This document shows positions 4,333 through 60,631 of a stretch of DNA of 64,000 nt, in pieces. The first letter of the stretch is position 1; each line of letters begins with the position of its first letter. The notes below the pieces were generated by a model, which saw only the letters and a program-made list of their open reading frames with translations, did not search any database and had not been told where the DNA came from. The stretch covers positions 655,087 through 719,086 of the forward strand of contig OY282367.1 of NCBI GenBank assembly GCA_958295755.1, read 5' to 3'. The stretch is from an uncultured Acidimicrobiales bacterium (GTDB taxonomy: Bacteria; Actinomycetota; Acidimicrobiia; Acidimicrobiales; Hopanoidiivorantaceae). The position numbers were made by a program, and so were the translations under genes.

Positions 4333-5256
4333 ATGGAATCAGGCAACAAGTTCGAAACAAACAAGTTCGAATTCGAAACAGTAGATGAGGTGCGCGCGGG
4401 CCTCGGCGAGGTGCGCTATCTGGCGGACGAAGGCATCGCCGGTGTGGTATATCTGGCCGACAGGCTGGGCAAGCCAGTGCTTGTGGAAGGCCCTGCCGGT
4501 ACAGGCAAGACACAACTAGCTAAGAGCGTGGCTGAGCTTACTGGTGCCCGTCTCATTCGTCTGCAGTGCTATGAGGGGCTGGATGAAGCCAAAGCACTCT
4601 ACGAATGGAACTATAAAAAACAGCTACTGCGCATCCAAGCCGAACGCCACGAAAGTCGCTCGTGGGAAGAAACTGAAGAAGGCATTTTTTCAGAGTCATT
4701 TCTGCTCACGCGCCCGCTGCTGGAAGCCATCAGAGCCAGTGACCCTGTAGTGCTATTGGTGGATGAGATAGACAGAGTGGAAGTAGAAACCGAAGCCTTG
4801 CTGCTGGAAGTGCTGAGCGACTATCAAGTGTCGGTTCCAGAGCTGGGAACGGTGGAAGCCAACCAGATACCGCTGGTGTTTCTGACCTCCAACAACACTC
4901 GCGACCTCTCAGAAGCCCTGAAGCGTCGCTGCCTCTACCTCTATATTGACTATCCCGACATTGAACGCGAGCGAGAAATCGTGCTCAAGAAAGTGCCTGA
5001 GATAACAGAGTCTCTGGCTGACCAAGTAGCTCGCATCGTGAGGTCGGTGCGCCAACTGGATCTCAAAAAATCGCCGTCTGTGTCGGAGACTTTAGACTGG
5101 GCGCGCACGCTAGTGCTACTCGGCGTCTCCAGTATTGATGCCGAAGTCGCCTCTGAGACTGCCAACATCTTGTTGAAGCATCGCAGCGACATAGAAAAAG
5201 CCCTCAAAGAATTCTCAGCCAACGGAGAGACTTTCGAAGCTAGCAGAGTCAGATGA
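4333..5256 (+). CDS. MoxR/CoxD-like AAA+ ATPase
   Basis: The Walker A motif is VLVEGPAGTGKT and Walker B is VLLVDEIDR. The stretch ...RLQCYEGLDEAKALYEWNY... is typical of the CoxD-like MoxR subfamily. An ATGA overlap links it to the downstream VWA gene. Confidence 0.8.
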   Translation: MESGNKFETNKFEFETVDEVRAGLGEVRYLADEGIAGVVYLADRLGKPVLVEGPAGTGKTQLAKSVAELTGARLIRLQCYEGLDEAKALYEWNYKKQLLRIQAERHESRSWEETEEGIFSESFLLTRPLLEAIRASDPVVLLVDEIDRVEVETEALLLEVLSDYQVSVPELGTVEANQIPLVFLTSNNTRDLSEALKRRCLYLYIDYPDIEREREIVLKKVPEITESLADQVARIVRSVRQLDLKKSPSVSETLDWARTLVLLGVSSIDAEVASETANILLKHRSDIEKALKEFSANGETFEASRVR

Positions 5257-6722
5257 AGAAGATAACAGTGTCCCCAGCACAAAAGGACGCAGCGCAAAAG
5301 GACGCAGCGCAATCCCCGCTACTCGGATTGCTAGGGGGCTTCATCGCAGAGCTGCGCACCGCCGGGCTACCCGTGAGCCTTACTGAAAACTTAGATGCGA
5401 TGGAAGCCGTTACGCACATACCGCTAGAAGACAGAGAAGCATTCAAATACGCACTTGGTGCCACGCTCGTGAAGAATCATGCCCATTGGCGTGCTTTTTC
5501 AACCGTCTTTGAAGTGTATTTTTCGCTACGTGGGGCAGAATACGGCACTGAAGAATGGGGCGAGGCAGGTGCTACCACCCAGGACGGCCAGCAGATCATG
5601 GCAGACGGCGGAACTGCAGCCGAAGAAGAGATGCGAAATCTGCTGTATGAAGCCCTCCTACACGGTGACCAAGCTATGCTCGCCGCAATAGCGCGCCAAG
5701 CAGTGATGCGCTATGCCAACATGGAGCCCGGCCGTCCAGTGGGGGGCACCTACTATCTTTTCCGCACTTTACGTAAGTTAGAGCTTGATGACTTGCTAGA
5801 ACAACTCATGGAACAAGCCCGCGAAGAAGCTCTTTCGCCTCTCACTCCGTTAGAAGAACGCCTGGAGCGTGACGAATTTGAGATACGGCTAGACGAGCTA
5901 AAAAAAGAGATAGAGGCAGAAATCCGCCGCCGGCTGGTAGCTGACCGAGGCGTGGAAGCGATGGCGAAAACTCTCCGCAAACCGTTGCCAGAAGATGTGG
6001 ATTTCATGCACGCCACCCGAGAAGAGATGGAAGCTGTGCGTAAAGCCATCGTGCCTTTGACCAGGAAGTTAGCTGCTCGTCTGTCACGCAAACGCCGCCA
6101 CGGGCGCAAAGGCCCGCTGGATTTCCGCAACACCATCCGTCATTCCCTCAGCTACGGAGGCGTGCCTGCCGAGCCGAAGTTCCGCTACCCGCGCCCTTCC
6201 AAACCAGAAATAGTTGTTATCGCCGACATTAGTGGCTCGGTAGCGTCTTTCGCACGGTTTACTTTGCATCTCGTGTATGCCATCGCTGGACATTTCACGA
6301 AGGTGCGCTCGTTCGTGTTCATAGATGGGGTAGACGAAGTAACGGAGTTCTTTGAACAAGCCGACGAGATAGGCGAGGCGATCCAGCGGGTCAACACCGA
6401 GTCGGATGTGATTTGGGTGGACGGTCACTCCGACTACGGCCATGCCTTTGAAGCGTTCTGGGAGAAATACGCCAGAGCCTGCGGGCCTAAGACGACTGTG
6501 CTTATTCTGGGCGATGCTCGCAACAACTATCACGCATCAGGTGCTTGGACACTCAAGGAGATACGCAAAAAAGCCCGCAAGCTCTACTGGCTGAATCCTG
6601 AGCCAAGGTCGTATTGGGACACCGGCGACTCTATCATCTCCGAATACACCACCCACTGCGACAGCGTGCATGAGGTGCGTAACCTTCGCCAGTTGGAGCG
6701 GTTCGTAGAGAGCTTGGTGTGA
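5253..6722 (+). CDS. VWA domain protein, CoxE-like partner of MoxR ATPase
   Basis: This 489-aa protein has a C-terminal VWA with a MIDAS-like motif (VVIADISGSV). It is translationally coupled to the AAA+ gene. The architecture matches the CoxE-type VWA family. Confidence 0.75.
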   Translation: MKKITVSPAQKDAAQKDAAQSPLLGLLGGFIAELRTAGLPVSLTENLDAMEAVTHIPLEDREAFKYALGATLVKNHAHWRAFSTVFEVYFSLRGAEYGTEEWGEAGATTQDGQQIMADGGTAAEEEMRNLLYEALLHGDQAMLAAIARQAVMRYANMEPGRPVGGTYYLFRTLRKLELDDLLEQLMEQAREEALSPLTPLEERLERDEFEIRLDELKKEIEAEIRRRLVADRGVEAMAKTLRKPLPEDVDFMHATREEMEAVRKAIVPLTRKLAARLSRKRRHGRKGPLDFRNTIRHSLSYGGVPAEPKFRYPRPSKPEIVVIADISGSVASFARFTLHLVYAIAGHFTKVRSFVFIDGVDEVTEFFEQADEIGEAIQRVNTESDVIWVDGHSDYGHAFEAFWEKYARACGPKTTVLILGDARNNYHASGAWTLKEIRKKARKLYWLNPEPRSYWDTGDSIISEYTTHCDSVHEVRNLRQLERFVESLV

Positions 6723-6752
6723 TATAAGGCTCAAATCACTTAGGATTATCTT

Positions 6753-10562: not shown

Positions 10563-11684
10563 ATGGCATCTTTAGAGAAATACGGTTGGGACGAAGATTG
10601 GTCTGAGCAGGTAACACTCGCCTGCCGTCACAACTCTCAGTTGCGCCATAGCCAGCCGGGACGGGTCGGAAGGGTGGATAGGGGAGCATGTGTGGTGCAT
10701 GTGGCGGATGGGCAAATCACAGCAGCATCGGATTCGCTACGCTCTCAGAGGGTTGTGGCACCCGCAACCGGCGACTGGGTGCTGGTGAATGAAGATGAAG
10801 AGTTGGGTTGGGTTGTGGATTTGGTATTGGAACGGCGAACCGCGATAGTGAGGCGCGATCCTTCGGTGGATGTGGTGGAACAGACCATAGTCGCGAATGT
10901 GGATGTGGTGGTGGTGGTGCACGGAATGGATCGCGATTTAGGTCCTGCTCAGATTGAACGCTTTTTGGTGTTGGCAGCCGACAGCGGAGCCAGGGCTGTG
11001 GTTGTGTTGCATAAAGCCGATCTATGTGATGAGCAGGGCCTTGTTGAAGCTAGTGGTGTGGCAGAGCAGTTGGCACCGGGTTTGCCTGTGATAGTGACCA
11101 GCGTGGCGGGGGAGGCGCACAGGGGACTGACAGAATTGCGCCAGCAAATCGGAAAGCAAGAGACGGGTGTGCTCATCGGAGTGTCAGGCGCAGGTAAGTC
11201 GAGCATCACGGCTGCCTTGTTGGGGGCTGGAGAGGTTTTATCAGAAATTGGGAGGTCTGATGGTGGGTCTGACGGTGGGGCTGACATCAGGATTGGATCC
11301 GTTGGCAAGCGCGGAGGTCGCCATGTTACTGTTGTGCGAGATCTTTATCAGCTACCTGAAGGGGGCGTGATAATTGACACCCCCGGGTTAAGAGCGGTTG
11401 GACTTTGGGCTGCTGACGCGGCTTTAGATGAAGTGTTCAGCGATATTGCAGGGTTAGCTGAGGGGTGTCGTTTCAGGGATTGCTCACATCGGATAGAACC
11501 TGGATGTGTTGTGGCAAAAGCGGTAGAGCAAGGTGAGCTTTCTGCTGATCGTTTGTTGCGTTATCAGCGTCTTTGGGAAGAGTTGGCACAGCAGAGCGAT
11601 GATCGAGAAGAACGCGAGCGGCGGCAAAGTCGGGGGCGGCATCGGGTTGTTACGACTAAGCGGGTGCGGCGTGGGAAGAGATGA
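10563..11684 (+). CDS. rsgA: ribosome small-subunit-dependent GTPase A
   Basis: The order of GTPase motifs is circularly permuted (..VLHKADL.. comes before GVSGAGKSS). The C-terminal zinc knuckle is CRFRDCSHRIEPGC. I chose the start at ATG 10563 (MASLEKYGW). The ORF-track start at 10497 would overlap the divergent gene. Confidence 0.8.
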   Translation: MASLEKYGWDEDWSEQVTLACRHNSQLRHSQPGRVGRVDRGACVVHVADGQITAASDSLRSQRVVAPATGDWVLVNEDEELGWVVDLVLERRTAIVRRDPSVDVVEQTIVANVDVVVVVHGMDRDLGPAQIERFLVLAADSGARAVVVLHKADLCDEQGLVEASGVAEQLAPGLPVIVTSVAGEAHRGLTELRQQIGKQETGVLIGVSGAGKSSITAALLGAGEVLSEIGRSDGGSDGGADIRIGSVGKRGGRHVTVVRDLYQLPEGGVIIDTPGLRAVGLWAADAALDEVFSDIAGLAEGCRFRDCSHRIEPGCVVAKAVEQGELSADRLLRYQRLWEELAQQSDDREERERRQSRGRHRVVTTKRVRRGKR

Positions 11685-11737: not shown

Positions 11738-12832
11738 TTAGGAGGTTATGGCGTCAACTAGCCCCCACTCTAGGGCTGTTGGGGGAGACAGGCGGCGGTT
11801 AGTTAGAGATAGCCAAGCTGTGCGGTGGCGGCCTATGCGGTGGGGGAGGCTGACTGTGCCGCCTGCGCCGGGGACTAGGCCAAAGCGCACTTCTGGAAGC
11901 CAGAAAAAGGCATCTGGAGTTGAGGTTATATTGTTTGTGAAGGCTGGAAGTTCTATGCCAGCTCCTACGCAGGCTCCGTGTACATCTACGCGAATGTGAT
12001 CGCGCAGCAGGTGCATCTCCCAAGCGGCACTTCGTAGCGACCGCACTATGTGGGCTGTGGCAGAGTCGGGAGTTGTGCCGAACTCCGTGAGGTCGCCGCC
12101 TGAGCAGAAAGCTTCGCCCGCGCCCTTGAGAACGATGTCACCTGGAACGATGCCACCTGGAACGATGTCACCTGGGTAGATGGCGCGCAAGATCTCCACT
12201 ATGGTGTCGCGCATCTCTGCGTTAAAGGCGTTGCGCCTCTCAGGGCGGTTTAATGTGAGGTATAAAGTGTCGCCAGTATCTTCTACTAGCACGGCGGGTG
12301 TGTCGGCGGCAGGCGATGCTGCTTCTTGCTTTTGCGCTCTTTGGGTTTGTAGCCAACTCTGGAAAACATTTCCACCTTGCAGCATGGAATAAACCCAAGA
12401 TTCAGCCATTAGTGCATCACGCACGCTCATAGTCTCACCTGCCCGCAAGAGCTGCGCGAGCGACACGGAGGCCTGAGGTGAAGCAAGCACTGTTTCTGTT
12501 ATGTCTTCTAGGTCTCCAGTGGCATTGTCGGTGATGATATCGAAGCAGAAGATGTCGCCAAAACCATCGGGATCATCTACAAGATCAGCTGCTATCTTGT
12601 CAGCGTCTTCTGTCAACAAGACAGTCACAGCAGGCAAAGCTCGCAGTGAGGTAGCTAAGTCTTGTCGCTTGCTACGGTTGCCGCCTGCTAGGTCAGTTTT
12701 GTGGTTTCTCGATCCGAGTTTCTCGGGTAGTTCAACCACCAAAAGGGGTTCGTCCAACTCTTCGTGAGCATGGGGGTTTGCTAGAAAATCTTGCAGTTCT
12801 TCAAAAGAAGTGAGCAATGTGGGAGAAGTCAT
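11738..12832 (-). CDS. enoyl-CoA hydratase/isomerase (crotonase) family protein with ~170-aa N-terminal extension
   Basis: The C-terminal half (...LYLTLNRPERRNAFN...VLKGAGEAFCSGGDLTEFG...) is a crotonase fold. I do not recognise the N-terminal part. Confidence 0.75.
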   Translation of the reverse strand: MTSPTLLTSFEELQDFLANPHAHEELDEPLLVVELPEKLGSRNHKTDLAGGNRSKRQDLATSLRALPAVTVLLTEDADKIAADLVDDPDGFGDIFCFDIITDNATGDLEDITETVLASPQASVSLAQLLRAGETMSVRDALMAESWVYSMLQGGNVFQSWLQTQRAQKQEAASPAADTPAVLVEDTGDTLYLTLNRPERRNAFNAEMRDTIVEILRAIYPGDIVPGGIVPGDIVLKGAGEAFCSGGDLTEFGTTPDSATAHIVRSLRSAAWEMHLLRDHIRVDVHGACVGAGIELPAFTNNITSTPDAFFWLPEVRFGLVPGAGGTVSLPHRIGRHRTAWLSLTNRRLSPPTALEWGLVDAITS

Positions 12833-14742: not shown

Positions 14743-16032
14743 ATGCCGATGAGATGTGGGCGGTTTTGGATGATAGGCCGCAAAATAAGAGTAGCGACTA
14801 TGAACGAAAAAGCGATAGGTTACTTCTCTTGGGCACGATGGACGGCCACGATTGAGCTGCTTTGTCATCTTGGTGAGATGTGCGGAGAGGAGACATTTGG
14901 CACATTCAAAAGGCGGATTGGTTGCGAAGAGGTGGGGCACCCAGACGCTGGGATAGTAACAGAGCTGGAGAGATCGGGTTTGTTGGTTGAGAGAGCAGCA
15001 CTGGCAGGAGTGTCGGCAGATGAGCTATGGCACAGGCGTTCGCCTATCTCTTTGGGTGGGGCTTGTCGGATGATGTTTACAGCAGACGGAGTGGTGGCTG
15101 TGAATCTGCCCCGCGAGGATGACTGGCAACTACTGCCTGCTTTCTTTGGAATGTCGGGTCGCATAATAGGACAATTTATAGCGGATACTGAACCGACATG
15201 GGAGAAGGTTGAAGAAGCAATATCTCAGCTACCAACCGTACAGGTAGTCTCAGCTGCTGGAGAGCTCGGAATGGCTATAGCTGAAGTGGGAAGCTACCAA
15301 GGTGCCAACTCTGCTACCAACTCCATTGCTTCTCTATCCCAAGACCATTTGGCTCCTTGCTCTCATTCCCACCGCCCGCTATCTGAAGCAAAAGTTGTTG
15401 ACCTGTCGGCAATGTGGGCGGGGCCGCTCTGTGGCGATCTATTGGCACGAGCAGGAGCACAAGTTGTGAAAGTGGAAAGCCTTAGCCGCCCTGATGGAGC
15501 TAAGAGGGGGATGCCAGAATTCTACGAAAGGCTGAACATTCAAAAACAACATCTCAGCATCAGACTTGAAACTTCAGAGGGGTTGGGGAAATTGCAAGAG
15601 CTGTTGCAGGAAGCCCACATCGTGATCACTTCATGTCGCCCTAGGGCTTTAGAGCAGATGGGCATTGATCTGCATCGTTTGGTAAGCGAAAATGGTGTCA
15701 TCTGCGCGGCAATCACAGGCTACGGTTGGGAGCAAGGCCACAGAGTTGCCTTCGGCGATGATGCCGCCGCAGCTGGTGGATTAGTTGCCTTTGGTGATGC
15801 AGATGTGGCTTCGCACGGCTCAGAGAGTGTGCACGGCTCAGAGAGTGCAAGTGTGCCAAAAGGTGAAGCAACAGATCTTCTGCCGTGCTTCGTAGGCGAT
15901 GCCTTGGCCGACCCTCTCACAGGCGTTGTGGCTACTGTTGCTGTGATGAAACAGTGGTTGAGCACAAGTTCAGCATTTCTGGATCTTTCCATGGCAGGTT
16001 CGGCTACCTACTTTTGTGAGGGTGGTTCGTGA
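14743..16032 (+). CDS. family III (CaiB/BaiF) CoA-transferase, atypical domain order
   Basis: The Rossmann signature VVDLSAMWAGPLCGDLLARAGAQVVKVES starts only at about residue 213, and the putative catalytic Asp region is AFGDDAAAAGGL. The N-terminal 210 aa resemble the small-domain/C-terminal part of the family. The start codon is uncertain. Confidence 0.7.
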   Translation: MPMRCGRFWMIGRKIRVATMNEKAIGYFSWARWTATIELLCHLGEMCGEETFGTFKRRIGCEEVGHPDAGIVTELERSGLLVERAALAGVSADELWHRRSPISLGGACRMMFTADGVVAVNLPREDDWQLLPAFFGMSGRIIGQFIADTEPTWEKVEEAISQLPTVQVVSAAGELGMAIAEVGSYQGANSATNSIASLSQDHLAPCSHSHRPLSEAKVVDLSAMWAGPLCGDLLARAGAQVVKVESLSRPDGAKRGMPEFYERLNIQKQHLSIRLETSEGLGKLQELLQEAHIVITSCRPRALEQMGIDLHRLVSENGVICAAITGYGWEQGHRVAFGDDAAAAGGLVAFGDADVASHGSESVHGSESASVPKGEATDLLPCFVGDALADPLTGVVATVAVMKQWLSTSSAFLDLSMAGSATYFCEGGS

Positions 16033-21777: not shown

Positions 21778-21891
21778 GAAAGCGATAATAGCACATAACT
21801 GTGACAAGCATCTGAGGGAATTTTGGATGAATTCCTACGATGTTGCCGCCTGCCATTAAGAGGTAGTCATCTGCGATTAAAGTGTAAAGAG

Positions 21892-22845: not shown

Positions 22846-22855
22846 AAAAATACGC

Positions 22856-22879
22856 TGTTGCCCGCCGTGAAGTTAGCAA
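22856..22879 (+). repeat. 24-nt conserved intergenic motif, copy 1 (TGTTGCCCGCCGTGAAGTTAGCAA)
   Basis: It is 22/24 identical to 30932-30955. It lies between murI and rph. Confidence 0.85.
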
Positions 22880-47620: not shown

Positions 47621-49972
47621 CTAAATTGCCGCCACTGAAGACTGAGGCATCGGATTTTGGTAGAGAGTGCTGCGTTGGCGAAGCGGACGACCTAACGGCT
47701 TGGTGACTGCTAGAAAGTCCTCATAGGTGGCACTTTGGCCGTGTTCTGCCCCAGCTGCGCGTGAGATATTTTCGTTGATGAGAGTGCCGCCTAGGTCGTT
47801 GACGCCAGCTTGGAGAGCTTGAGCCGCCCCCGACATACCCAGCTTCACCCAAGACGCCTGAATGTTGGGCACGAGATCGCGATAGGCGATTCTGGCTACC
47901 GAATGCATCAGCAAGGTTTCACGAAATGTCGGCCCTCGTCGCGACTGCTTGCGGATATATATAGGCGAGGCCATATGCACAAAGGGAAGCGGCACAAACT
48001 CGGTGAAGCCGCCTGTTTCTTTTTGAAGTTCTCGTGTGCACAGCATGTGGCGTGCCCAGTGGAGAGGTTGCTCTACCGAGCCGAACATAATAGTGATATT
48101 AGAGCGCAATCCTATGGAGTGGGCAATTCTGTGAGCTTCCAGCCATTCTTCGGTAGTGATCTTGTCGGGGCAGATAATCGAGCGAATGTCGTCGTCCAGA
48201 ATCTCTGCTGCTGTGCCCGGTAGCGAACGCAGACCTGCATCCATGAGGCGTCCAAGATAGTCGGCGAGTGGTTCACCCAAGCGTTTAGCACCTTCGGTCA
48301 CTTCTAGGGCGGTGAAGCCGTGAATGTGGATATCTGGTGCGGCATCTGAAACCGCCCTGGTGACATCTATGTAGTAGTCGCCGTCAAAGTCGGGGTGAAT
48401 GCCGCCTTGCAAGCAGACTTCGGTGGCTCCCAATGTTGCGGCTTCTGCGGTTCGTTCTGCGATGTCGTCAAGGGTGAGCAGATACGGATCGCCTCTGAGA
48501 TTGAGCGAAAGTGGGCCCTTGGAGAAGCCACAGAAACGACACTTAAAGGTGCAGACATTGGTGTAGTTGATATTGCGGTTAAAGACCCAAGTAACTTCTT
48601 CACCTGCGATCTCGCGGCGTAGATCATCGGCTACCTCTGCCACTGCTCGCACTTCGTGGCCTCGAGCAGAAAACAGCGTGATTATTTCTGCTTCGCCTAG
48701 TTCTTGGCCTGAGCGCACGCCTTCTAGTACTTCAGAAACTGGGCCGCGTACTTCAGTGACTGGGCCGCGCGCGCCAAGTTTCAGCAAAAAGTCTGGAGAG
48801 CTGATTTCAGGGGCAAAAGCTTCAGGTGAAACAGCCAGTGTAGAGATAGCTGTCGGTAGCAGATCTGGGGGTGGCGTGGGTGCGCCTGAATACCAGCCAC
48901 GGTCGTTTTCTCGAGCTAGATGTTCGGCATCGCTATTGTCTAAAACATTGAAGCGCACTTCAGGGTCTAGCCAGTTGCTGTTCGCAAACTCTGGGTAGAC
49001 CGTCATTCGAGGGGCCAAAGTGCGACCTGCTGCCTCGGTTACTTTCAGCAGTAGCTCTAAATCTGGCCAAGGACGTTCGGGGTTTACATGGTCTTTTGTG
49101 ATCGGCGACACACCGCCCCAGTCGTCTATGCCTGCCCCAATGAGCTGGCCGAAGTCTTCGGTGAGATTGGGCGGGGCTTGGAGGTGGATATCTGGCGGCA
49201 GTATTAGGCGGGCCAAGGCGATGGACTCTAAGTAGTCTTCGTGGGGGCAGGCATCGCTGGCATGCATAGCCGTGCCAGCTTTAGGGAGGAAGTTCTGCAC
49301 GATCACCTCTTGGATATGACCGTAAAGCCGATGTGCGTGAGCGATGGCCTCTAGGGCTTCTATGCGATCTTGCCTAGACTCGCCTATACCCACGAGGATG
49401 CCAGTGGTAAATGCGATACGCAACTTACCGGCTTCGTGAAGAGTAGCTAGGCGGCGTTCTGGGGTTTTATCGGGAGATCCGATGTGGCAACGGAGGTTAG
49501 GGTTCAGGGTTTCCAGCATCATCCCTTGCGACGGGCAAGTCTCACGCAGGGCTGCCAACTCGTCGGGGAAGAGCGCACCAGCGTTGGCGTGTGGGAGCAA
49601 ACCTGTTTCTTCTCTAACGGCGGTGGCGGCAACGCAGAGGTAATCAACGGTTGATTTATAGCCATGTGCTTTGAGCCAGTCGGCAGCATCAGGGTAGCGG
49701 AGTTCGGGGCGTTCGCCCAAAGTGAACAGAGCTTCACGGCAACCCGCTTCGGCACCTTTTGTGGCGATATTCAAGACTTCTTCCAAGGAGAGGAAGGGGG
49801 AGTTTAGGCGAGCAGGAGGTTGGGCGAAGGTGCAGTAGCCGCAACGATCGCGACAAAGCATTGTTAACGGGACAAAGACTTTAGGCGAGTAAGTTAGACG
49901 GTTGCCGAAGGCCGCGTCGCGGGTTTGAGATGCTTTGTCTAGCAGCTCCGAAGCTGGAAGGTTTAGTGTCAT
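47621..49972 (-). CDS. fbiC: bifunctional FO synthase (CofG+CofH fusion), F420 biosynthesis
   Basis: This 783-aa protein has two radical-SAM cysteine motifs, CRDRCGYCTF and CTFKCRFCGF, one per half, as in FbiC. Confidence 0.9.
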   Translation of the reverse strand: MTLNLPASELLDKASQTRDAAFGNRLTYSPKVFVPLTMLCRDRCGYCTFAQPPARLNSPFLSLEEVLNIATKGAEAGCREALFTLGERPELRYPDAADWLKAHGYKSTVDYLCVAATAVREETGLLPHANAGALFPDELAALRETCPSQGMMLETLNPNLRCHIGSPDKTPERRLATLHEAGKLRIAFTTGILVGIGESRQDRIEALEAIAHAHRLYGHIQEVIVQNFLPKAGTAMHASDACPHEDYLESIALARLILPPDIHLQAPPNLTEDFGQLIGAGIDDWGGVSPITKDHVNPERPWPDLELLLKVTEAAGRTLAPRMTVYPEFANSNWLDPEVRFNVLDNSDAEHLARENDRGWYSGAPTPPPDLLPTAISTLAVSPEAFAPEISSPDFLLKLGARGPVTEVRGPVSEVLEGVRSGQELGEAEIITLFSARGHEVRAVAEVADDLRREIAGEEVTWVFNRNINYTNVCTFKCRFCGFSKGPLSLNLRGDPYLLTLDDIAERTAEAATLGATEVCLQGGIHPDFDGDYYIDVTRAVSDAAPDIHIHGFTALEVTEGAKRLGEPLADYLGRLMDAGLRSLPGTAAEILDDDIRSIICPDKITTEEWLEAHRIAHSIGLRSNITIMFGSVEQPLHWARHMLCTRELQKETGGFTEFVPLPFVHMASPIYIRKQSRRGPTFRETLLMHSVARIAYRDLVPNIQASWVKLGMSGAAQALQAGVNDLGGTLINENISRAAGAEHGQSATYEDFLAVTKPLGRPLRQRSTLYQNPMPQSSVAAI

Positions 49973-51111: not shown

Positions 51112-53162
51112 CAGCAACAGTTTTCCGTTCGAGGTGCAGATTTGGTTTTGTTGGCTTTCAGAAGGGCAAGAGCCCTAGAGCGCACAGCTGACGCTGTTAC
51201 TCCTAAGTTTCTCATAACTTCATCGCCCGGAGCGGACGCTCCGAAATCATCTATCCCCATAGCATCGTCTGCCCAGCGGTGCCATCCGTGCGTGCTACCT
51301 GCTTCTACCGACAAAGTGGGCACTCCTTTTGGCAATACAGAATCTCGATAGCTGTCAGGCTGCGCGGCAAAGAGATCCCAAGAGGGCATAGAGACTACCC
51401 GTGCCGCTATGCCGTCTTTAGCTAGCTTTTGGGCAGCTTCCAAGCACAGAGAGACTTCACTACCGGTGGCGATGAGTGTAATAACGGGGCTGGTGTCAGC
51501 CGCAGAAGTTTCAGAGGTTTCCAGAGAGGTCGCAGCGGTATCCAGCAGGTAAGCTCCTCGCGCCACGCTTTCAGCAGAGGTTTGCTCCAGCACGGGCACT
51601 CCTTGACGGGTCAAAATCAGAGCGGTCGGCCCGTCATTGGCTAACGCTGCTTGCCAAGCCCCAACTGTTTCTGTGGCATCAGCAGGGCGAATCACCGAAA
51701 GGCGGGGAATAGCTCGCAACGCAGTTAGATGTTCTATGGGCTGGTGGGTAGGGCCGTCTTCTCCAACAGCCACCGAGTCGTGACTCCAAGAAAATACTAC
51801 CTTCGCACCGCACATGGCAGCCAAGCGTACCGATGGGCGCATATAGTCGCTAAATACCAGGAAAGTTCCCCCCACAGGCAACAGGCCGCCGTGACAAGCC
51901 ATGCCGACCATCGTGGCAGCCATGGCATGTTCGCGGACGCCGAAATAGATCTGCTGGCCATCGGCGCAGTCGTGTGAGATGAGTTTGGCATCGGCGAGTT
52001 TTGTGCCTGTGTTGCCAGTGAGGTCGGCACCGCCAGCCACGATTTGGGGATTGCTGGCAGCCAAAGCTTTGAGACATTCGTTGCTGGCCACGCGTGTGGC
52101 GACCTTCTCGCCGGGAGTGAAACTAGGTTCGCTGTTAGTTTTGTCCAAAACTTTACCAGCCAGAACAGCCTTGTCTAACCCTCCTAGCCGTTGTTCCCAA
52201 GCAACACGGGCAGCGCGGCCTCGTTCAGATGCAGGCTTGTATATCTCTTGAGCAGCAGGGGGCACCCAGAAAGTCTCGTCTGTGGGAATTCCAATGGCAG
52301 CTTTAGCCGATGCTATCTCTTCGTCAAAAAGAGCGTAGCCGTGCGTTGAAGGATGGTCTGTGAGCTCAGGTGAAGGGTAGGCGATGTGAGAGCGTAGCAC
52401 CAGCAACGAAGGGGCATCTTCGGCTGTCATAGCTTCTCGCAGGGCCGACTCCAAAATATCCAGGTCTTCGCCTGCTTCGCCTAGTTGCTGGGTGTGCCAA
52501 CCGTATGAAGAAAAACGTTTGACGGGGTCATCTGAGAGCCACTTGTCGGTGGTGCCGTCAATAGAAACTCGATTGTCGTCATATATATAGACAAGACGGC
52601 CCAAACCAAGATGTCCTGCTAGTGAGGCAGCTTCATGGCTCACGCCTTCGGCTAGATCGCCGTCGCTGCAGATCACAAAAATATGGTGGTTGCAGAGGTC
52701 GCTCCCGAAGCGATGTCGTAGCCAACGCTCCGCGATACCCATCCCCACGCCGTTGGCAAAACCCTGCCCCAGAGGCCCCGTTGTGACTTCCACGCCTGGT
52801 AAGTGGCCTGCTTCAGGGTGGCCGGGGGTAGCACTGTTCCACTGGCGGAAGTTTTTGATGTCGTCTAAGCTCACGCCGTAGCCCGAGAGGAAAAGCATGG
52901 AATACAACAAGACAGACGCGTGCCCTGCGCTCAATATAAAGCGGTCGCGGTCTGGCCAGTCGGGGTCGGTGGGGTCATAAGTCATTATCCGATGCCATAG
53001 CACATGAGCTAGAGGAGCAAGTGCCATTGCAGTGCCTTGGTGCCCTGAGCGGGCAGCATGGGGAGCGTCCATAGCGAGACCTCGTATAGTCGCTATGGCT
53101 AGCTGATCAGGTGCTAGCTGGTCAGGTGCCAGCTGGTCAGGTGAGAGGGCAGTGTTGGTCAT
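51111..53162 (-). CDS. tkt: transketolase
   Basis: The TPP-binding region is ...SAGHASVLLYS...GHPE...TTGPLGQG...SDGDLAEGVSHEA.... The length of 683 aa fits the family. It is followed by tal. Confidence 0.9.
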   Translation of the reverse strand: MTNTALSPDQLAPDQLAPDQLAIATIRGLAMDAPHAARSGHQGTAMALAPLAHVLWHRIMTYDPTDPDWPDRDRFILSAGHASVLLYSMLFLSGYGVSLDDIKNFRQWNSATPGHPEAGHLPGVEVTTGPLGQGFANGVGMGIAERWLRHRFGSDLCNHHIFVICSDGDLAEGVSHEAASLAGHLGLGRLVYIYDDNRVSIDGTTDKWLSDDPVKRFSSYGWHTQQLGEAGEDLDILESALREAMTAEDAPSLLVLRSHIAYPSPELTDHPSTHGYALFDEEIASAKAAIGIPTDETFWVPPAAQEIYKPASERGRAARVAWEQRLGGLDKAVLAGKVLDKTNSEPSFTPGEKVATRVASNECLKALAASNPQIVAGGADLTGNTGTKLADAKLISHDCADGQQIYFGVREHAMAATMVGMACHGGLLPVGGTFLVFSDYMRPSVRLAAMCGAKVVFSWSHDSVAVGEDGPTHQPIEHLTALRAIPRLSVIRPADATETVGAWQAALANDGPTALILTRQGVPVLEQTSAESVARGAYLLDTAATSLETSETSAADTSPVITLIATGSEVSLCLEAAQKLAKDGIAARVVSMPSWDLFAAQPDSYRDSVLPKGVPTLSVEAGSTHGWHRWADDAMGIDDFGASAPGDEVMRNLGVTASAVRSRALALLKANKTKSAPRTENCC

Positions 53163-53170: not shown

Positions 53171-54352
53171 TCAAGTCTCTCGGCCGAATAATGCCACAGA
53201 CGTTGTGAAGCCGTGGAGGTAGTTCTTTTGTCCCACAGGACCGATTTCGCCAGCGCACGACATTCCAGCTAGAGGCAAGTCATTTAGCATGTCAGAAATC
53301 AGCCCGGCATCATGGTTGGGTGTGCCGAACATATGAGTGCCCCGCCCGTTGCATGTGAATAGCAAAGCACCCTGAGCGGTTTCATCAGCAAAAGAAGAGC
53401 GCAAATCAGACGTAGCAGTTTCGGCATCGCGCACATGGAACTGGATAGTGTCGCCCACTTCTACCATCCCACCCACAGCAACTGCGCCACTCTCGCGATC
53501 CAGATCTATTATTCCCCTGATGAGAAAATCGCCACCCGTATATTCAAGATGAGATTCATCCACCGCTATGCCCACATGCAGACCCTTGCGCATAAGGCGG
53601 CGTTCTTCGTCGCTGGCGGTCGCTACGAGGTCGCGCAAGCGCATGAGAGCAGGCCTGCCGCCGAGCTCAAGCAGGTGGTTGCCTTCTGCCCTGGTAACGG
53701 TATATGGACTTCCAGTAGGGTGGCAACCCTGCGAGACGATGCTGCGAACGCTAGGAATCTCAGAGACGAGCGCGCCCACAGCACCATCGCTATAAAGATC
53801 ACCGTTCAGCCAAAGCTGGGCTGAGCCGGGGCGTGTAACAGCAGTCGTTAGCCCGCCGACAACGCGGATATCAGGCTGATCTTCGGCCAAGTTAAAAAGT
53901 AAATCCTCGGTTGGGAACGAGAAAGGGTCGGCCAGCAACAAAAGGGTAGTTGCGAGAGGCAAATCCCCGACACTCGGGTCACCGCCCCCACTCTCTCTAG
54001 TATTGCTGCTCTCTCTGGTATTGCTGATCTCTTGAGGATTGCCGCCTGTGAGACGAACCCCCTGAATATGGCCTTCTGATGTCCCCCAGAGGGCCATCGC
54101 TGGCTGGGACTCCACTTCTCTATTTCCGCCAATAACAGTGTCGCTAAGAGTAGCAAGCAGGCACTGCGGTTTGAGGACATCCATCGCCAACTTGGTTATT
54201 TGCTTCATAGCGTCTCTATAAGAAGCAGATGCAAACAGCATCACTAATGTGGGCGTGTCTTCCAAAGTGTCCTGTACTTGGCTAACGACCTCTGCTACTG
54301 CCTCTGGGCCGGAAGGATGCTCAGAAAGAGCTGCTGCATATTTTGCTGTCAT
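53171..54352 (-). CDS. FIST (N+C) domain sensory protein
   Basis: The N-terminus ...LVMLFASASY... and the C-terminus ...ALLFTCNGRGTHMFG...AGMSCAGEIGPVG... match the FIST_N/FIST_C pattern. The gene ends 8 nt before the tkt start. Confidence 0.7.
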   Translation of the reverse strand: MTAKYAAALSEHPSGPEAVAEVVSQVQDTLEDTPTLVMLFASASYRDAMKQITKLAMDVLKPQCLLATLSDTVIGGNREVESQPAMALWGTSEGHIQGVRLTGGNPQEISNTRESSNTRESGGGDPSVGDLPLATTLLLLADPFSFPTEDLLFNLAEDQPDIRVVGGLTTAVTRPGSAQLWLNGDLYSDGAVGALVSEIPSVRSIVSQGCHPTGSPYTVTRAEGNHLLELGGRPALMRLRDLVATASDEERRLMRKGLHVGIAVDESHLEYTGGDFLIRGIIDLDRESGAVAVGGMVEVGDTIQFHVRDAETATSDLRSSFADETAQGALLFTCNGRGTHMFGTPNHDAGLISDMLNDLPLAGMSCAGEIGPVGQKNYLHGFTTSVALFGRET

Positions 54353-54536: not shown

Positions 54537-56591
54537 TTGAATGAGATGTATCGAATTGTTGTGCCTGTGGTATTGCTGGCTGTGGCTGTGGGGGCTTTTG
54601 TTGCACAAAGCCGAACCCGGCCAGATGAGACCGCCTCGGGAGCAGGAGAAGAGATATTAAATCTGCGGCCTTTGTTGGATACCGCTCGCCTCAGATTCAC
54701 AGATAATGAGGGGGCGGCTCAGCCGGGTGGAGCAACACGTCCGCAAGATGGAAGTGGCAGTGGGGGAGAAGACGGCTCAGAAGGACAAGATCCCACATTT
54801 GTCGGACTGCCTGATGAGATACCTGAACTAGGCGGGTCAAGCGTAGACGAACTTGCCGACCGCCTCAACGAGATCATGGGACGGTTGCCGGCTAGTTATC
54901 GCACTTGTTTTGTGGTGCGAGAGCGGACGAACAATTCTGATAATTCTGGCCGCCAGCAACTAGGCAATATCTTCTTACATAACGCTGAACTTTCGCTGGT
55001 GCCTGCATCCAATATGAAACTGGCCACAGCAGCAGCCGCTCTCCTGCAGCTAGGTCCCGATTATCGCTTGACCACACGAGTGTTGGCTTCACGCCTCCCT
55101 GTAGGAGAAGAGCTATACGGCGATCTGTATCTCGTCGGAGGTGGCGACCCGCTGCTCTACACCTCTGAATATCTCGCAACCTTTGTGAGATTACCATCGG
55201 TATACACCCAAATTGAAGACTTAGCTAAACAAGTTTACGACAGAGGTTTACGAAGGATCAACGGCAGCATCGTGGGCGTTGCCACACGCTATGACGACAG
55301 GCGCATCGCTTCGCAGCTGATATCTGAAGAGTCGTATCAGTATGTGGGACCGCTAAGCGCACTCCTCATCAACGACGGCTATACCAACTACGCGGAGCGG
55401 CGAGATCTAGGGACTTTGCCAACTCCAGCATCCAACCCGACACTATTCACCGCAGCCGAATTCGACGATCTTCTAGAAGCCCTTGACATGGTGATCACCC
55501 AGCGGCCACGCGTGGCAGGTCGCGATGAGAACATCCGCGGCTTTATAGAGATTGCTCGCATTGAGTCGGCACCGCTTTCGGAGTTGCTGTTATCCCTCTT
55601 GACCGACAGCGATAACACGACTGCAGAGTTGTTGATCAAAGAGATTGCCAGTAACCGGGCGGTAGCAGAGCTTCTAGCGCAGCAGCCCGAAGAGCGAGTG
55701 CTGGAGTTACCAGAGGAAGAAGAGACAGGTGATAATGCTGGGGGAGATTCAGGCGATGATGTTGAGGGCAATGCTGGGGGTGAAGCTGGCGGAGCAGGCG
55801 ATAATGCTGAGGCCACTGATGCTGAAGGCGGTGCGAATGCTGCTCCTGAAAATACCGGTGTAGATAAGCCAGTTAGCGTTCAGCAAAGCAGTACAGATAA
55901 TGCGGCTACCTCTTTAGGAAGCATCAGACGGATACAAACAGACGGAGAGGAAACCCAGCAGCAGCCACTAATAATAGACCTCACCAGAGAAACAGAGGTA
56001 GACGAAGAAGGAAATCCTATCCAGCAGCCTGATGAGGGAGAGGGCACTGGGGGAGAAGGCACTGGCTCTGGGGAAGGCGAGGAAGAAGGCCAGGAAGAAG
56101 GCGAAGAGCGCGTTATTCCATCCACCGAAGATCCGGAGGTAACTCCTCTCACCGCAGAGCCGGGCAACACCCAAGCAGGTGTAGAGGCAGTAGCTCAGAT
56201 TTTGACCGATAACGGCATCAACAGCTGGTCGGGAGTTCCACTAGACGGCTCAGGTTTAGACAACCGCAACTTGATGAGCTGCGCCGCAGCAGCCGACATT
56301 TTGGATTTCTTCGGTCCGCGGTCGGATTTTTCCAATGCCCTAGCCAAAGCAGCAGAAACAGGCACCCTGCAAGACAGATTTGCTAATACTTCTCTCGTAG
56401 GTCGCTTGAGAGGCAAGACTGGTTCGCTACCCGGGGTAACCACTCTTTCAGGCTTTATTGATGCTGATGAAAATCGCTCGCTGACTTTTTCTTTCTTCAT
56501 AAACCATGGTTTCACCGCCGCCGACGATGAGCGAGCCTTGCGTACTCAGCAAGAAGCAATGCTGGAGTTAGCTGATTATCTGGATGGCTAA
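54537..56591 (+). CDS. dacB: D-alanyl-D-alanine carboxypeptidase/endopeptidase (PBP4 / S13 family) with large acidic insertion
   Basis: The SxxK motif is ASNMK, SxN is DSDN and KTG is RGKTGS. There is an N-terminal TM/signal segment. The start is either TTG 54537, 9 nt after a GGAGG, or ATG 54546. Confidence 0.75.
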   Translation: MNEMYRIVVPVVLLAVAVGAFVAQSRTRPDETASGAGEEILNLRPLLDTARLRFTDNEGAAQPGGATRPQDGSGSGGEDGSEGQDPTFVGLPDEIPELGGSSVDELADRLNEIMGRLPASYRTCFVVRERTNNSDNSGRQQLGNIFLHNAELSLVPASNMKLATAAAALLQLGPDYRLTTRVLASRLPVGEELYGDLYLVGGGDPLLYTSEYLATFVRLPSVYTQIEDLAKQVYDRGLRRINGSIVGVATRYDDRRIASQLISEESYQYVGPLSALLINDGYTNYAERRDLGTLPTPASNPTLFTAAEFDDLLEALDMVITQRPRVAGRDENIRGFIEIARIESAPLSELLLSLLTDSDNTTAELLIKEIASNRAVAELLAQQPEERVLELPEEEETGDNAGGDSGDDVEGNAGGEAGGAGDNAEATDAEGGANAAPENTGVDKPVSVQQSSTDNAATSLGSIRRIQTDGEETQQQPLIIDLTRETEVDEEGNPIQQPDEGEGTGGEGTGSGEGEEEGQEEGEERVIPSTEDPEVTPLTAEPGNTQAGVEAVAQILTDNGINSWSGVPLDGSGLDNRNLMSCAAAADILDFFGPRSDFSNALAKAAETGTLQDRFANTSLVGRLRGKTGSLPGVTTLSGFIDADENRSLTFSFFINHGFTAADDERALRTQQEAMLELADYLDG

Positions 56592-56624: not shown

Positions 56625-57035
56625 ATGACTACTTCACAGCAAGAGAAGGTTAAGGAGGGGACTTCACCCTTTGCTGCTATTGCCACTGCCAAGCTGGGCG
56701 AAGAGATGGCAGTTTTGCTGAAAGAATATTTGCTGCAGCAGACGGTCAAGCCGGCAAAGCAACTGCTTCGTTGGGTGCTCTTTGGGCTACTTGGTGCTCT
56801 GCTGTTGCTTGCTGGGGTAGCGATGCTTATGCTTGCTGGGTTGCGGGCATTGCAGGCTCAGACGGGATCTACCTTTACTGGCAGTCTGAGTTGGTTGCCT
56901 TATTTTATTTCCATCGGCGGTATCGGGATTTTGCTGGGTTTGTCGGTTATGGCTATGCGAAAACTACCCTCTGGAGCACCTGATCATGAAGACAAAGATG
57001 CTTCCGATACTACCAATGGCGATAAAACCGACTAA
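56625..57035 (+). CDS. small membrane protein (two TM; possibly actinobacterial Holin-X-like family)
   Basis: At 136 aa it has two long hydrophobic helices (LFGLLGALLLLAGVAMLMLAGL and ISIGGIGILLGLSVMAM). The family assignment is from memory only. Confidence 0.45.
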   Translation: MTTSQQEKVKEGTSPFAAIATAKLGEEMAVLLKEYLLQQTVKPAKQLLRWVLFGLLGALLLLAGVAMLMLAGLRALQAQTGSTFTGSLSWLPYFISIGGIGILLGLSVMAMRKLPSGAPDHEDKDASDTTNGDKTD

Positions 57036-57042
57036 CAGAGAA

Positions 57043-57097
57043 ATCACAGTGAAATCACAGCAGTATCACAGCGAAATCACATCAGAATCACAGAAAG
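57043..57097. repeat. 11-bp phased repeat, ATCACA x5
   Basis: ATCACA starts at 57043, 57054, 57065, 57076 and 57087, an exact 11-bp period. The other five positions of each unit are degenerate. The array lies between a stop at 57035 and a start at 57107. Confidence 0.9.
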
Positions 57098-58437: not shown

Positions 58438-58496
58438 TAGTGCTCCTTGATGGGTGGTGGTGTCTTGGCGGTGATTTTGCTATAGGTCTGGGGTGT

Positions 58497-58538
58497 AAGA
58501 TTATGGTCTTAGATATTAAGATTATGGTCTTAGATATT
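58497..58538. repeat. perfect 21-bp tandem direct repeat x2 in the ferredoxin/mpa divergent region
   Basis: aagattatggtcttagatatt occurs at 58497-58517 and again at 58518-38. It sits in an AT-rich stretch 216 bp upstream of the mpa start. Confidence 0.9.
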
Positions 58539-58753
58539 CAGTATATATACAATGGCTGGTAATGCGGGATATTTTCTTGAAAATAATTTTGGCATCTTCA
58601 GCAAGCTTACATCAGAAACTCACATCAGAAGCATGACTGGTACAAATCTCTTAGCAATCTCTTGACAATCTGCGTGGCGACAGCCAAAGCCGATAAAATA
58701 CCAAAATAGGTGCAAGCCCAAAATAGGTATGAAAGATATAAGCAGGGAAGGCG

Positions 58754-60631
58754 ATGGCTGAGAAACAACCAAAGGAGCGTGAAGCTCCACCAAAAGAAGG
58801 TCAAGCAGACGGCCCAAAAGAAAGCCCAAAAGAAGGCACTGCCAGCAAGCCAGCCAAATCGCAGGCACCGACTGCCACCCCCAAAGTTGCTTCAAAAGCT
58901 ACTCCTAAAGCTGCTCCGAAGTCTGCTCCAAAAGTTCATAGCGTTGAGGAGGGCGCGCCCATCCAAGAGCGTCATGAGCAGCTGCGGGCCGCACGCAAAG
59001 AGATCACTCACCTTCGCGAGCGCAATAACTCTCTCGCCGCTCAGATGGAAGACCTCAGCACTCGCAACAAGAAGCTTGATTACACTCTGCGCGAAGTGCG
59101 AGAGCAAGTGGTGTCGTTGCGAGACGATTTAGAGAAACTACGCCAGCCTCCAGCCGAATATGCCACCGTGCTGGCTGTAAACGAAGACGAGACAGTAGAT
59201 GTCTACAGCCGGGGTCGCAAGATGCGAGTTACAGCCAGTCTCAAAGAAGTCGACTCTCTCGGGCGGGGGATGGAAGTGCTGTTGAACGAGTCGCTCAATA
59301 TCGTGGCTACCCGCGATGTGGAAACCACAGGCACGATAGTCACCCTCCAAGAAATGCTGCCCGACGGGCGAGCCGTTGTGGAAGGGCGCGCAGATGATGT
59401 GCGAGTTGTAGAAATTTCCGAGCATCTGAGCGACAGCGCATTCCACGCTGGCGACACACTGCTGATGGATGTCTACTCAAGCTTGGTTATAGAGCGGCTA
59501 CCGCGCCCCGAAGTGGAAGATTTGTTGCTTTTGGAAGTGCCCGATGTGAGCTATGAAGATGTGGGCGGCTTGGAGAAGCAGATAGAGATGATCGTGGATG
59601 CCGTTGAGCTTCCTTTCTTGCATCCTGACTTGTTTATGGAGCACAAGTTGCCTGCTTCTAAAGGCGTGCTACTCTACGGGCCGCCAGGTTGTGGCAAAAC
59701 TCTCATCGCCAAGGCAGTAGCTAACTCTCTGGCTAAAAAGCTCGCAGAATCCACCGATAACACCAAAGCCAGCAGCTACTTCTTCAACATCAAAGGCCCC
59801 GAGCTACTCAACAAATATGTCGGCGAGACAGAACGCCAGATACGCCTCATCTTCCAACGAGCCCGAGAAAAATCCGAAGAGGGTTGGCCTGTGATCGTGT
59901 TCTTTGACGAGATGGAGTCGCTGTTTCGCACCAGAGGCACAGGCATTAGCTCAGATGTAGAAGCCACCATCGTGCCTCAGCTGCTAGCTGAGATAGACGG
60001 AGTAGAGACCCTGCGAAATGTCATCGTCATTGGAGCGTCCAACCGTGAAGACCTGGTCGACCCGGCTATCTTGCGCCCGGGCCGTTTTGATATCAAGATC
60101 AAGATAGATCGACCCGACCGCGAAGCCGCAGCTGCCATTTTCTCGCGCTACCTCACGCCCGACTTGCCAATAGCTGAGACAGAGATAGCAGCCCTCGGTG
60201 GCGGAGATGTGCATCGAACTGCCGAAGTGATGATATCTGAAGCCCTAAACGCTATGTATTCGGAAGAGCCTGCTACAGAGTTTTTGGAAGTTACTTATCG
60301 CAACGGCGACAAAGAGACGATGTATTTCAAAGACTTCGCCTCCGGTGCCATGATTGAAAGCATCGTGCGAAGAGCCAAGCAGTTGGCTATCAAGCGATAC
60401 TTAGCAGGCGAGACAAAAGGTATCTGTAAAGCCGACCTCATTGAGGCTGTGGCACGGGAATTCACCGAGCACGAAGACTTGCCCAATACCACCAACCCCG
60501 ATGACTGGGCCAAGATCTCTGGCAAGAAGGGCGAACCCATCGTCTATGTGCGCACCTTGATGAAACAGCAAGAGAGCGCATCTGGCGGCCGTTCCATAGA
60601 AGGCGTTGCTAGCAAAGCCCAATATTTCTAG
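58754..60631 (+). CDS. mpa: proteasome-associated AAA+ ATPase Mpa/ARC
   Basis: The layout is coiled-coil, then OB domains (...[15 protein letters not shown]...), then the AAA module (GPPGCGKT and [10 protein letters not shown]). The C-terminus is ...KAQYF. A GGGAAGG RBS is present. The N-terminus carries a K/P/A-rich extension. Confidence 0.9.

Follow-up and report, generated by a model that had tools for sequence, protein, structure and literature searches.

The window analysed here is a stretch of 64,000 nucleotides (nt) of contig OY282367.1, the source contig (2,292,181 bp) of a 2.29-Mb Acidimicrobiales genome. It carries many short head-to-tail duplications, here called arrays, most of which lie within genes. 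The original prediction had listed arrays in 14 genes, and all 14 were recovered in place or a few bases off. They were detected with Tandem Repeats Finder (TRF), except for the array of the moxR-like gene at 4345–4380, which was missing from the TRF output and was visible in the translation as NKFETNKFEFET. TRF also added arrays that had not been listed, two in the gene for PBP4 (56036–56065 and 56073–56104) and a perfect intergenic one of 21 bp x2 (58496–58538).

The earlier gene assignments held under NCBIfam profiles. The hosts in the first half of the series were a MadB/MoxR-like AAA ATPase, a MadC-like VWA protein, RsgA, a crotonase-like protein, a CoA-transferase-like protein, MurI, a protein of the geranylgeranyl-reductase (GG-reductase) family and FolC. 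They were followed by PBP2, RNase E/G, FbiC (CofGH), the transketolase Tkt, a FIST protein, PBP4 and Mpa.

The nearest relative of the window (L001) was the 2.62-Mb chromosome of a 'Candidatus Hopanoidivoransaceae bacterium', with 86% amino-acid identity in FbiC and synteny with the window from mreB to PBP4. The second nearest (L002) was an uncultured Acidimicrobiales contig with 74% identity in FbiC. An FbiC search with one genome per species gave matches only in Acidimicrobiia. A family-level relative (L086) had proteins only about 65% identical to those of the window. Population contigs of 88–98% nucleotide identity to the window were obtained from several metagenome samples, including ones labelled JAHN19, which we take to be a sponge metagenome study. 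The window lineage is a sponge-associated family-level clade near 'Ca. Hopanoidivoransaceae'. The GC content was 53% in the window, 59–64% in the nearest relatives and 65–74% in most of the class.

The N-terminus of the MadB/MoxR-like AAA ATPase (4345–4380, + strand) has two copies of a 15-bp unit (NKFET), and nested in this array the 6-bp palindrome TTCGAA (FE) is itself duplicated. The two NKFET copies were common to 10/10 population contigs, and the nested TTCGAA duplication was seen in 0/10. Family members had 0–5 copies of a different N-terminal repeat of 10 amino acids (aa). The MadC-like VWA protein carries a TRF array of 15 bp x2.5 (AQKDA) at aa 8–20 of its N-terminus (5275–5312, +). 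This array was polymorphic, with the long allele in 8/10 population contigs and one copy fewer (–15 bp) in 2/10. The short allele keeps an 8-bp direct repeat, CAGCGCAA, at exact 15-bp spacing.

The RsgA array (11254–11285, +; 12 bp x2.7, SDGG, 90% matches in TRF) was common to 3/3 population contigs. The array of the crotonase-like protein (12130–12175, –; 15 bp x3.1, PGDIV, by TRF) had the same length in 3/3 population contigs, with a variant base in another copy. Three further arrays lay in stretches left uncovered by the population contigs. The first, in the CoA-transferase-like protein (15813–15847, +; 18 bp x1.9, HGSESV, 100% TRF matches), is outside the family-profile region (aa 211–347). 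The second, in the GG-reductase family protein (28564–28616, –; 18 bp x2.9, SPDTET, 97% TRF matches), occupies aa 337–354, C-terminal to the best-scoring family match (TIGR02032, aa 17–325). The third is in FolC (37168–37194, +; 12 bp x2.2, EVIE, 100% TRF matches).

Two of these hosts have an odd architecture. The crotonase-like ORF (open reading frame; 11738–12832, –) matched the first 180 of 258 profile positions, and did so in its C-terminal half (aa 181–362). The CoA-transferase-like ORF (14743–16032, +) matched only positions 3–149 of 416. Both architectures were conserved in relatives (358–368 aa and 427–433 aa, respectively), so neither is a fresh pseudogene.

MurI has two perfect arrays. 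The first (22130–22178, +; 18 bp x2.7, SVAEEG) is in a clade-specific insertion, where the profile match is interrupted between positions 75 and 111, and had one copy fewer in 5/5 relatives about 97% identical. The second (22270–22305, +; 18 bp x2.0, KTIKVE) has no flanking microhomology, and its unit was single-copy in 5/5 relatives. One MurI orthologue, which agreed with the window protein at 98% of the aligned positions (92% in the local alignment by BLASTP), differed essentially only by whole-unit indels: it had one SVAEEG fewer, one KTIKVE fewer and two extra GEH[KR] units. At the DNA level, neither of the 18-bp murI copies nor a 9-bp copy at 19906 was present in the relatives of about 97% identity, which had 24-bp and 6-bp insertions of their own.

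The perfect PBP2 array (42551–42581, +; 12 bp x2.6, RETV) is in the C-terminal tail, at aa 676–686 of 691, and this tail was 4 aa (12 bp) shorter in 95%-identical relatives. The N-terminal disordered, S/K/G-rich segment of RNase E/G (44277–44395, +) holds a degenerate 15/45-bp array (76–86% matches in TRF), where L001 and L002 had different repeats. In FbiC, the linker between CofG and CofH (48727–48769, –) holds 21 bp x2 (RGPVTEV/RGPVSEV, by TRF). This unit was single-copy in six 96–97%-identical relatives and in L001 and L002, and the linker of L002 had an independent array of 30 bp x2.1.

The transketolase array (53098–53143, –; 15 bp x3.1, PDQLA, by TRF) is at aa 7–22 of the N-terminus. 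The window has three copies, the population contigs had two (n=2) or one (n=2), and L001 had one. The L001 transketolase (L001 6468–8645) also has a large lineage-specific insertion of about 58 residues that are absent from the window protein.

The array of the FIST-domain protein (53991–54042, –; 18 bp x2.3–2.8, SNTRES, by TRF) corresponded to a lack of 12 aa in L001. The population relatives had the same length here with other copy sequences, and copies were more alike within each strain than matching copies between strains. This pattern suggested turnover within the array. In PBP4 (a D-Ala-D-Ala carboxypeptidase), arrays of 15 bp x2 (GEGTG) and 12 bp x2.7 (EEGE/Q) were found by TRF at 56036–56104 (+). 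They are in a long insertion between conserved halves, and the profile matched only aa 171–306 and 566–694. Relatives differed there by +3 bp and –12 bp, and L001 and L002 had other repeats in the same insertion. The array in the N-terminal tail of Mpa, the proteasome ATPase (58812–58834, +; 12 bp x1.9, PKE[S/G], 100% TRF matches), had one copy more (+12 bp) in population relatives.

In intergenic DNA, TRF gave an 11/22-bp array at 57035–57093, for which relatives showed 0 or +11 bp, and a 22-bp array (82–86% matches) at 27545–27600, between a CoA-transferase gene and rpe. The perfect 21 bp x2 array at 58496–58538 is AT-rich and about 215 bp upstream of mpa, and it was single-copy (about –21 bp) in both population contigs that spanned the site. 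Its unit holds an inverted repeat, TAAGA/TCTTA. An operator-like site upstream of mpa may thus have been duplicated.

For the census, overlapping rows among the 51 TRF rows of the window were merged and periods below 6 were dropped. This gave 30, 20 and 12 arrays at TRF scores of at least 40, 50 and 70, respectively. Thirty dinucleotide-preserving shuffles of the window gave 1.4, 0.2 and 0.0 arrays at the same scores. Inside the ORFs of the window there were 23, 15 and 9 arrays, and codon shuffling in 60-codon blocks left 1.2, 0.23 and 0.0. Head-to-tail local duplications in the window are far beyond chance.

The units were local. None of the 13 units of at least 15 bp matched outside its own array within the window at up to two mismatches. 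One of the four 12-mer units (GAAGTAATAGAA, folC) had two further matches in the window at up to one mismatch. The uniqueness of the units in the window indicated local duplications, not dispersed or mobile elements.

The peptides encoded by the arrays are short and hydrophilic (NKFET, AQKDA, SDGG, SVAEEG, KTIKVE, SPDTET, RETV, PDQLA and PKES). They are N-terminal in MoxR, VWA, Tkt and Mpa. C-terminal repeats lie in the tail of PBP2 and, in the GG-reductase protein, past its domain. The remaining placements are linkers or insertions: the CofG–CofH linker of FbiC, profile positions 75–111 of MurI, aa 306–566 of PBP4 and the N-terminal low-complexity region of RNase E. The original prediction had placed the duplications in essential enzymes. 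The hosts are mostly housekeeping proteins, but the repeats keep to termini, linkers and lineage-specific insertions or loops and stay out of the catalytic cores.

An AlphaFold model of MurI agreed with this placement. The model (predicted TM score 0.81) had a confident core, and the per-residue score (pLDDT) was below 50 at aa 110–122 and about 58–64 at aa 151–170. Both low-confidence segments are the two repeat sites. Window proteins were longer than background orthologues by a median of 0–15 residues.

The density of arrays was compared between the clade and other members of the class. The clade set consisted of the window, L001, L002 and L086 (about 125 kb in three genomic neighbourhoods), and the background of 78 other Acidimicrobiia loci (1.3 Mb) from an fbiC-centred set of 80 loci. 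The same TRF settings were used for all loci, and ORFs were delimited with a simple, crude mask.

Inside ORFs, the clade had 3.5 arrays per 10 kb at scores of at least 50 and the background had 0.86 (ratio 4.1, P=5e-12). At scores of at least 70 the densities were 1.68 and 0.20 (ratio 8.4, P=2e-10). Outside ORFs, the corresponding values were 12.3 versus 2.4 per 10 kb (ratio 5.2, P=0.001) and 7.7 versus 1.3 (ratio 5.9, P=0.007). Perfect arrays with a period of at least 12 were 6.6 times denser in the clade (P=1e-6). This measure was adopted in place of a permissive 'young array' metric (period 9–24, at least 90% match, score at least 30), which did not separate the clade from the high-GC background because 9-bp chance repeats dominate there. 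A single 50-kb sample of Escherichia coli K-12 had 0.2 arrays per 10 kb at scores of at least 50, and the clade was about 15 times higher.

The three sampled relatives (L001, L002 and L086) were raised in density too, with arrays of their own. The lineage-specific bias proposed earlier was thus borne out by related loci: the clade was 4–8 times above other Acidimicrobiia, and the elevation was confined to this family-level clade. The period spectrum (12–24 bp) of the clade was equal to that of the background. The clade differs in the rate or persistence of the arrays, not in their kind.

Several simple causes of the difference were ruled out. GC content did not account for it, as background loci below 62% GC had only 0.54 arrays per 10 kb. 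These low-GC loci, together with the dinucleotide and block-wise codon shuffles, also ruled out base composition and codon usage. Sequencing technology did not account for it either, since the long-read metagenome-assembled genomes (MAGs) L003 and L021 had 0.45 and 0 arrays per 10 kb at scores of at least 50. At the same score the sponge-associated Poriferisocius loci L003, L006 and L034 had 0.45, 0 and 0.61, which spoke against sponge association alone. A small genome alone was not sufficient, as the 2.35-Mb isolate L021 was without any array at this score.

The reading frame was respected inside ORFs. At scores of at least 40 in the window, the period was a multiple of three in 20/24 arrays inside ORFs versus 1/6 outside (Fisher P=0.005). 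In the clade comparison, the numbers were 40/42 inside versus 2/8 outside (P=5e-5). The copy-number polymorphism of the intergenic array at 57035–57093 is 11 bp, a unit that is not a multiple of three. The predicted difference in period between coding sequences (CDSs) and intergenic DNA was therefore supported, but the tmRNA repeat offered as an example of it was old and conserved and did not qualify. The contrast fits a frame-blind input of duplications that is then filtered by selection in CDSs. The enrichment was alike inside and outside ORFs and the frame filter was strict, so both a raised, frame-blind input and an effective selection were indicated.

The arrays turn over fast. Copy numbers that differed from relatives 88–98% identical were found in murI (two sites), moxR, VWA, PBP2, fbiC, tkt, PBP4 and mpa, and in the intergenic arrays at 57035 and 58496. 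Between close relatives they came in whole units, as expected from slippage. In alignments of orthologues, the FbiC, Tkt and FIST duplications were absent in L001 and L002. Members of the clade often bore their own arrays at the same sites, such as the PBP4 insertion, the N-terminus of RNase E, the FbiC linker and the N-terminus or upstream region of Tkt.

Protein lengths as called varied among strains for many genes. Obg was 492 or 502 aa, MurJ 584 or 548 aa and TAL 374 or 387 aa. PBP4 was 678, 681 or 686 aa in other strains versus 709 aa in the window, and RNase E/G was 571 or 577 aa versus 604 aa.

The original prediction had regarded the copies as perfect or nearly so, and as young. Some of these arrays (NKFET, rsgA and crotonase) have one or two differences between copies and were common to relatives 95–97% identical. 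One difference in a 15-bp unit is about 7% divergence. Zero to two differences therefore mean young only on the scale from species to genus.

We consider it probable that the clade has a raised input of slippage-type short duplications, mostly of 9–24 bp, which turn over fast and are filtered by selection. The nascent strand would dissociate during replication and re-pair out of register, often at a microhomology of a few bases, giving a head-to-tail duplicate. Once two copies are present, slipped-strand mispairing would expand or contract the array and give series such as one, two and three copies. It would also keep the copies within one genome alike. The input would have no frame preference, and purifying selection would purge frameshifts and events in structured cores. 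The survivors would be in-frame hydrophilic repeats at termini, linkers and loops, by which proteins would slowly lengthen. The rate would be raised in the clade by some inherited alteration of the replication or repair machinery, such as lost or weakened single-stranded DNA exonucleases or flap processing.

We infer slippage as the molecular route from the junctions and the copy numbers. Six of the eight perfect arrays extend 3–13 nt past whole copies, as a partial copy or microhomology. The 8-bp direct repeat at 15-bp spacing in the short VWA allele is a classic substrate of slipped-strand mispairing and thus fits slippage. The stepwise copy series and the homogenisation within arrays fit it as well. 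Slippage is the usual origin of insertions that duplicate neighbouring sequence (PMC11385596).

Other observations weighed against this reading or limited it. The bias towards slippage or microhomology that had been proposed agrees with the extensions and the VWA repeat, but not with murI 22270, 58496 (1 nt) and the TTCGAA duplication of moxR, three events in which the microhomology is 0–1 nt. Duplications without microhomology may have arisen by a different route. Between strains there were about 23 indel events per about 850 substitutions, which is not extreme overall, and only about half of the in-frame strain indels of at least 6 bp were clean tandem copies. The enrichment is moderate (4–8 fold) and derives from about 125 kb in three neighbourhoods, not from whole genomes. 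Standing density reflects input and persistence together, and slower loss could contribute. Finally, the cause of the raised rate in the clade is entirely inferred.

A stronger form of the same reading is that the clade has inherited a 'micro-duplication mutator' state. Some specific defect or change in the replication or repair machinery, affecting perhaps a single-stranded DNA exonuclease, a flap nuclease or a part of the replisome, would then increase de novo tandem duplications of 9–24 bp genome-wide. This is a tentative proposal, with the chances against it. Defects in flap nucleases give duplication mutators: yeast rad27 (FEN1) mutants and bacterial mutants in the 5'-nuclease of Pol I accumulate short duplications genome-wide that are bounded by short direct repeats. 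Unlike these, several of the clade duplications are without bounding repeats. In E. coli, single-stranded DNA exonucleases and an intact replisome limit tandem-repeat rearrangement, and strains that lack ExoI, ExoX, RecJ and ExoVII (Feschenko et al. 2003, as cited in PMC3942315) or are impaired in replication show tandem-repeat instability. Their RecA-independent slipped misalignment, which expands and contracts tandem repeats, could plausibly serve as a model of an inherited increase in rate across the genome. These mutants are laboratory strains assayed on reporter repeats.

The original prediction had named an altered mismatch-repair or NucS-type background as one possible cause, and this was a poor fit and is unlikely. 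Repair of the MutS and NucS types handles mismatches and loops of 1–4 nt, whereas these duplications would form loops of 12–21 nt. The class enriched in the clade is 9–24 bp, not the 1–4-nt indels or microsatellites expected from mismatch-repair deficiency. An excess of microsatellites was looked for in the window and not found: mononucleotide runs of 8 nt or more numbered two, GTG x5 was the one trinucleotide run, and no dinucleotide occurred five or more times in succession. The size of the loops and the lack of a microsatellite excess are the grounds for this judgement. MutS and MutL are generally absent in the actinobacterial phylum. The window and the retrieved loci contained none of the repair genes of interest (nucS, mutS/L, recJ, xseAB, polA and ku/ligD).

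Relaxed purifying selection alone would leave the duplication rate ordinary, and a host-associated, reduced genome with a small effective population size would fail to purge in-frame insertions. The sponge-associated lineage, its 2.29-Mb genome and its GC of 53% versus 65–74% agree with this, as do proteins slightly longer than their orthologues and the many repeats in housekeeping proteins. However, relaxed selection on proteins does not predict the 5–6 fold rise outside ORFs, which is like that inside. Nor were the sponge Poriferisocius loci and the 2.35-Mb L021 enriched. The strict frame filter (40/42) and the avoidance of conserved cores argue that selection is still effective. We regard this explanation as unlikely.

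Filling-in of staggered breaks is an alternative for the mechanism itself. Nearby nicks on opposite strands, arising from excision-repair patches or from abortive cuts by a nuclease or transposase, would leave overhangs of 6–22 nt, which would be filled and joined in a manner like non-homologous end joining, giving exact duplications without microhomology. Several of the youngest events, which are exact with 0–1 nt of microhomology (murI 22270–22305, moxR TTCGAA and 58496–58538), are as expected from this, and the narrow length spectrum of 9–24 bp suits a stagger model. Patch-mediated duplication at double-strand breaks has been documented in plants, according to the citation of Vaughn and Bennetzen (2014) in PMC11385596. 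On the other hand, most perfect arrays have a partial copy of 3–13 nt, the VWA allele pair has its 8-bp direct-repeat substrate, and the stepwise series (tkt with 1, 2 and 3 copies, mpa with 2 and 3, and PBP2) are what slippage in existing arrays typically gives. The period spectrum also matches that of the background loci. As a general account, filling-in is distinctly improbable; it may have produced the minority of exact events.

Adaptive hypervariability, with the arrays acting as contingency-type loci under selection for diverse or switchable protein functions, would agree with the copy-number polymorphism within populations. It is very improbable, as the units are 9–24 bp and never shift the frame, most hosts are housekeeping proteins (MurI, FolC, Tkt, FbiC, Mpa and RsgA) rather than variable surface antigens, intergenic DNA is equally enriched, and microsatellites are rare.

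That the duplicated units are assembly or polishing errors, an alternative raised with the original prediction, is scarcely credible and was rejected: arrays and copy-number alleles recurred in assemblies from ENA and Logan that had been made independently, from Illumina as well as long reads. These include the NKFET, VWA, rsgA and crotonase arrays, which other samples showed in Illumina (k141, scaffold) and long-read (ptg, contig) assemblies, and the independent assemblies bear arrays and allelic copy numbers of their own; moreover, units of 6–22 bp are far below read or k-mer size, arrays in ORFs keep the frame, and long-read MAGs of other Acidimicrobiia are poor in arrays. What speaks for errors is that both murI copies, the moxR FE duplication, a 9-bp array at 19901 and the 58496 copy had no confirmation from a second assembly of the strain, and that searches for exact matches to window proteins (Tkt, MoxR, FbiC and MurI with its start corrected) gave no second record.

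The proposed raised input of slippage-type duplications can be set beside known systems. Like known slippage duplications and coding minisatellites (PMC11385596), the clade arrays are head-to-tail local copies with partial copies or microhomology at many junctions, stepwise change in copy number and in-frame survivors in CDSs. The difference is in amount, not in kind: the density is 4–8 times that of the class, and the arrays occupy many housekeeping genes and intergenic DNA, not a few hotspots. The clade arrays are of a known kind, slippage-generated and similar to variable number tandem repeats (VNTRs), and the mechanism is textbook. The new element is that the elevation extends across a whole lineage, an uncultured sponge-associated family of Acidimicrobiia.

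The VNTRs of Mycobacterium tuberculosis, including its mycobacterial interspersed repetitive units (MIRUs), are actinobacterial tandem arrays whose copy number varies between close strains, and like these the clade arrays would serve as strain markers. MIRU units are about 40–100 bp, largely intergenic, and form dispersed sequence families. The clade units, unlike these, are 9–24 bp, each unique in the window, and mostly inside CDSs. Phase-variable contingency loci share with the clade a length polymorphism driven by slippage. Their units of 1–8 nt belong to surface, virulence or restriction-modification genes and switch the frame or the promoter spacing, whereas the clade units are 9–24 nt, in-frame and mostly in cytoplasmic housekeeping enzymes, and microsatellites are rare. 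In KPC beta-lactamase variants, short in-frame duplications mediated by tandem repeats are tolerated in enzyme loops, as outlined in PMC12593533. KPC as outlined there is a single gene under antibiotic selection; in the clade many loci are affected, with no sign of positive selection.

A literature search found no paper describing this repeat phenomenon. 'Hopanoidivorans' was named in no paper found, and 'Poriferisocius' only in passing. A comparative genomics paper on sponge Actinobacteriota was silent on repair, tandem repeats and genome reduction.

If the elevation is genome-wide, it would represent a natural shift in the rate of short duplication rather than of point mutation, and the responsible gene could be searched for by comparing gene content. 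It would also offer a view of micro-duplications seeding insertions, linkers and low-complexity tails, such as the MurI insertion, the FbiC linker and the tails of Tkt, Mpa and MoxR, and would supply VNTR-like markers for strains of an uncultured sponge symbiont in metagenomes. If the mutator state is true, the clade would be a natural experiment in protein lengthening and in the gain of linkers and disordered segments. As the mechanism is textbook, the value is comparative rather than conceptual. Protein lengths and alignments that vary with strain at many loci call for caution, as they disturb orthologue clustering and exact-match look-ups.

The repeat in the tmRNA gene (gene at 17541–17934, identified by Rfam and ARAGORN; repeat at 17664–17718, –; 20 nt x2.8) was excluded from the young set. 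It had been taken for a young duplication with a period that is not a multiple of three, and this was ruled out by its conservation almost base for base in the tmRNA of L086. The repeat is old and held by constraint, and it is probably structural (pseudoknot region). The two tmRNAs are 96% identical, and their tags are GNRNADLAMAA in the window and GNRNAERVAV in L086.

Indels that are not tandem were also seen. Compared with contigs of about 97% identity, the window had an extra 38 bp upstream of murI (21819–21856), 90 bp in the murI–rph spacer (22842–22931) and 22 bp at 25033–25054. A relative (L083) had an extra 181 bp after the position matching 19861 of the window. Such intergenic indels may be small mobile or deleted segments. 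A 12-mer, GTTGCCGCCTGC, preceded by CTACG, was found at 12677–12688 and 21842–21853, within two window-specific insertions. It was rejected as a mobile or templated element, as there were only two copies and 16/100 shuffles reached that count.

A degenerate repeat of 16 bp x4 (GGCATCCCGACATAAA, 66% matches) lies at 36024–36087, just upstream of and overlapping the annotated start of folC. Between proB and murJ is a gene (502–1281, –) that Pfam, applied to its L088 orthologue, assigns to the MT-A70 family of methyltransferases. The GC skew was positive in all 4-kb bins except the last, whatever the orientation of the genes, with a cumulative value of +0.93. This suggested that the entire window is on one replichore.

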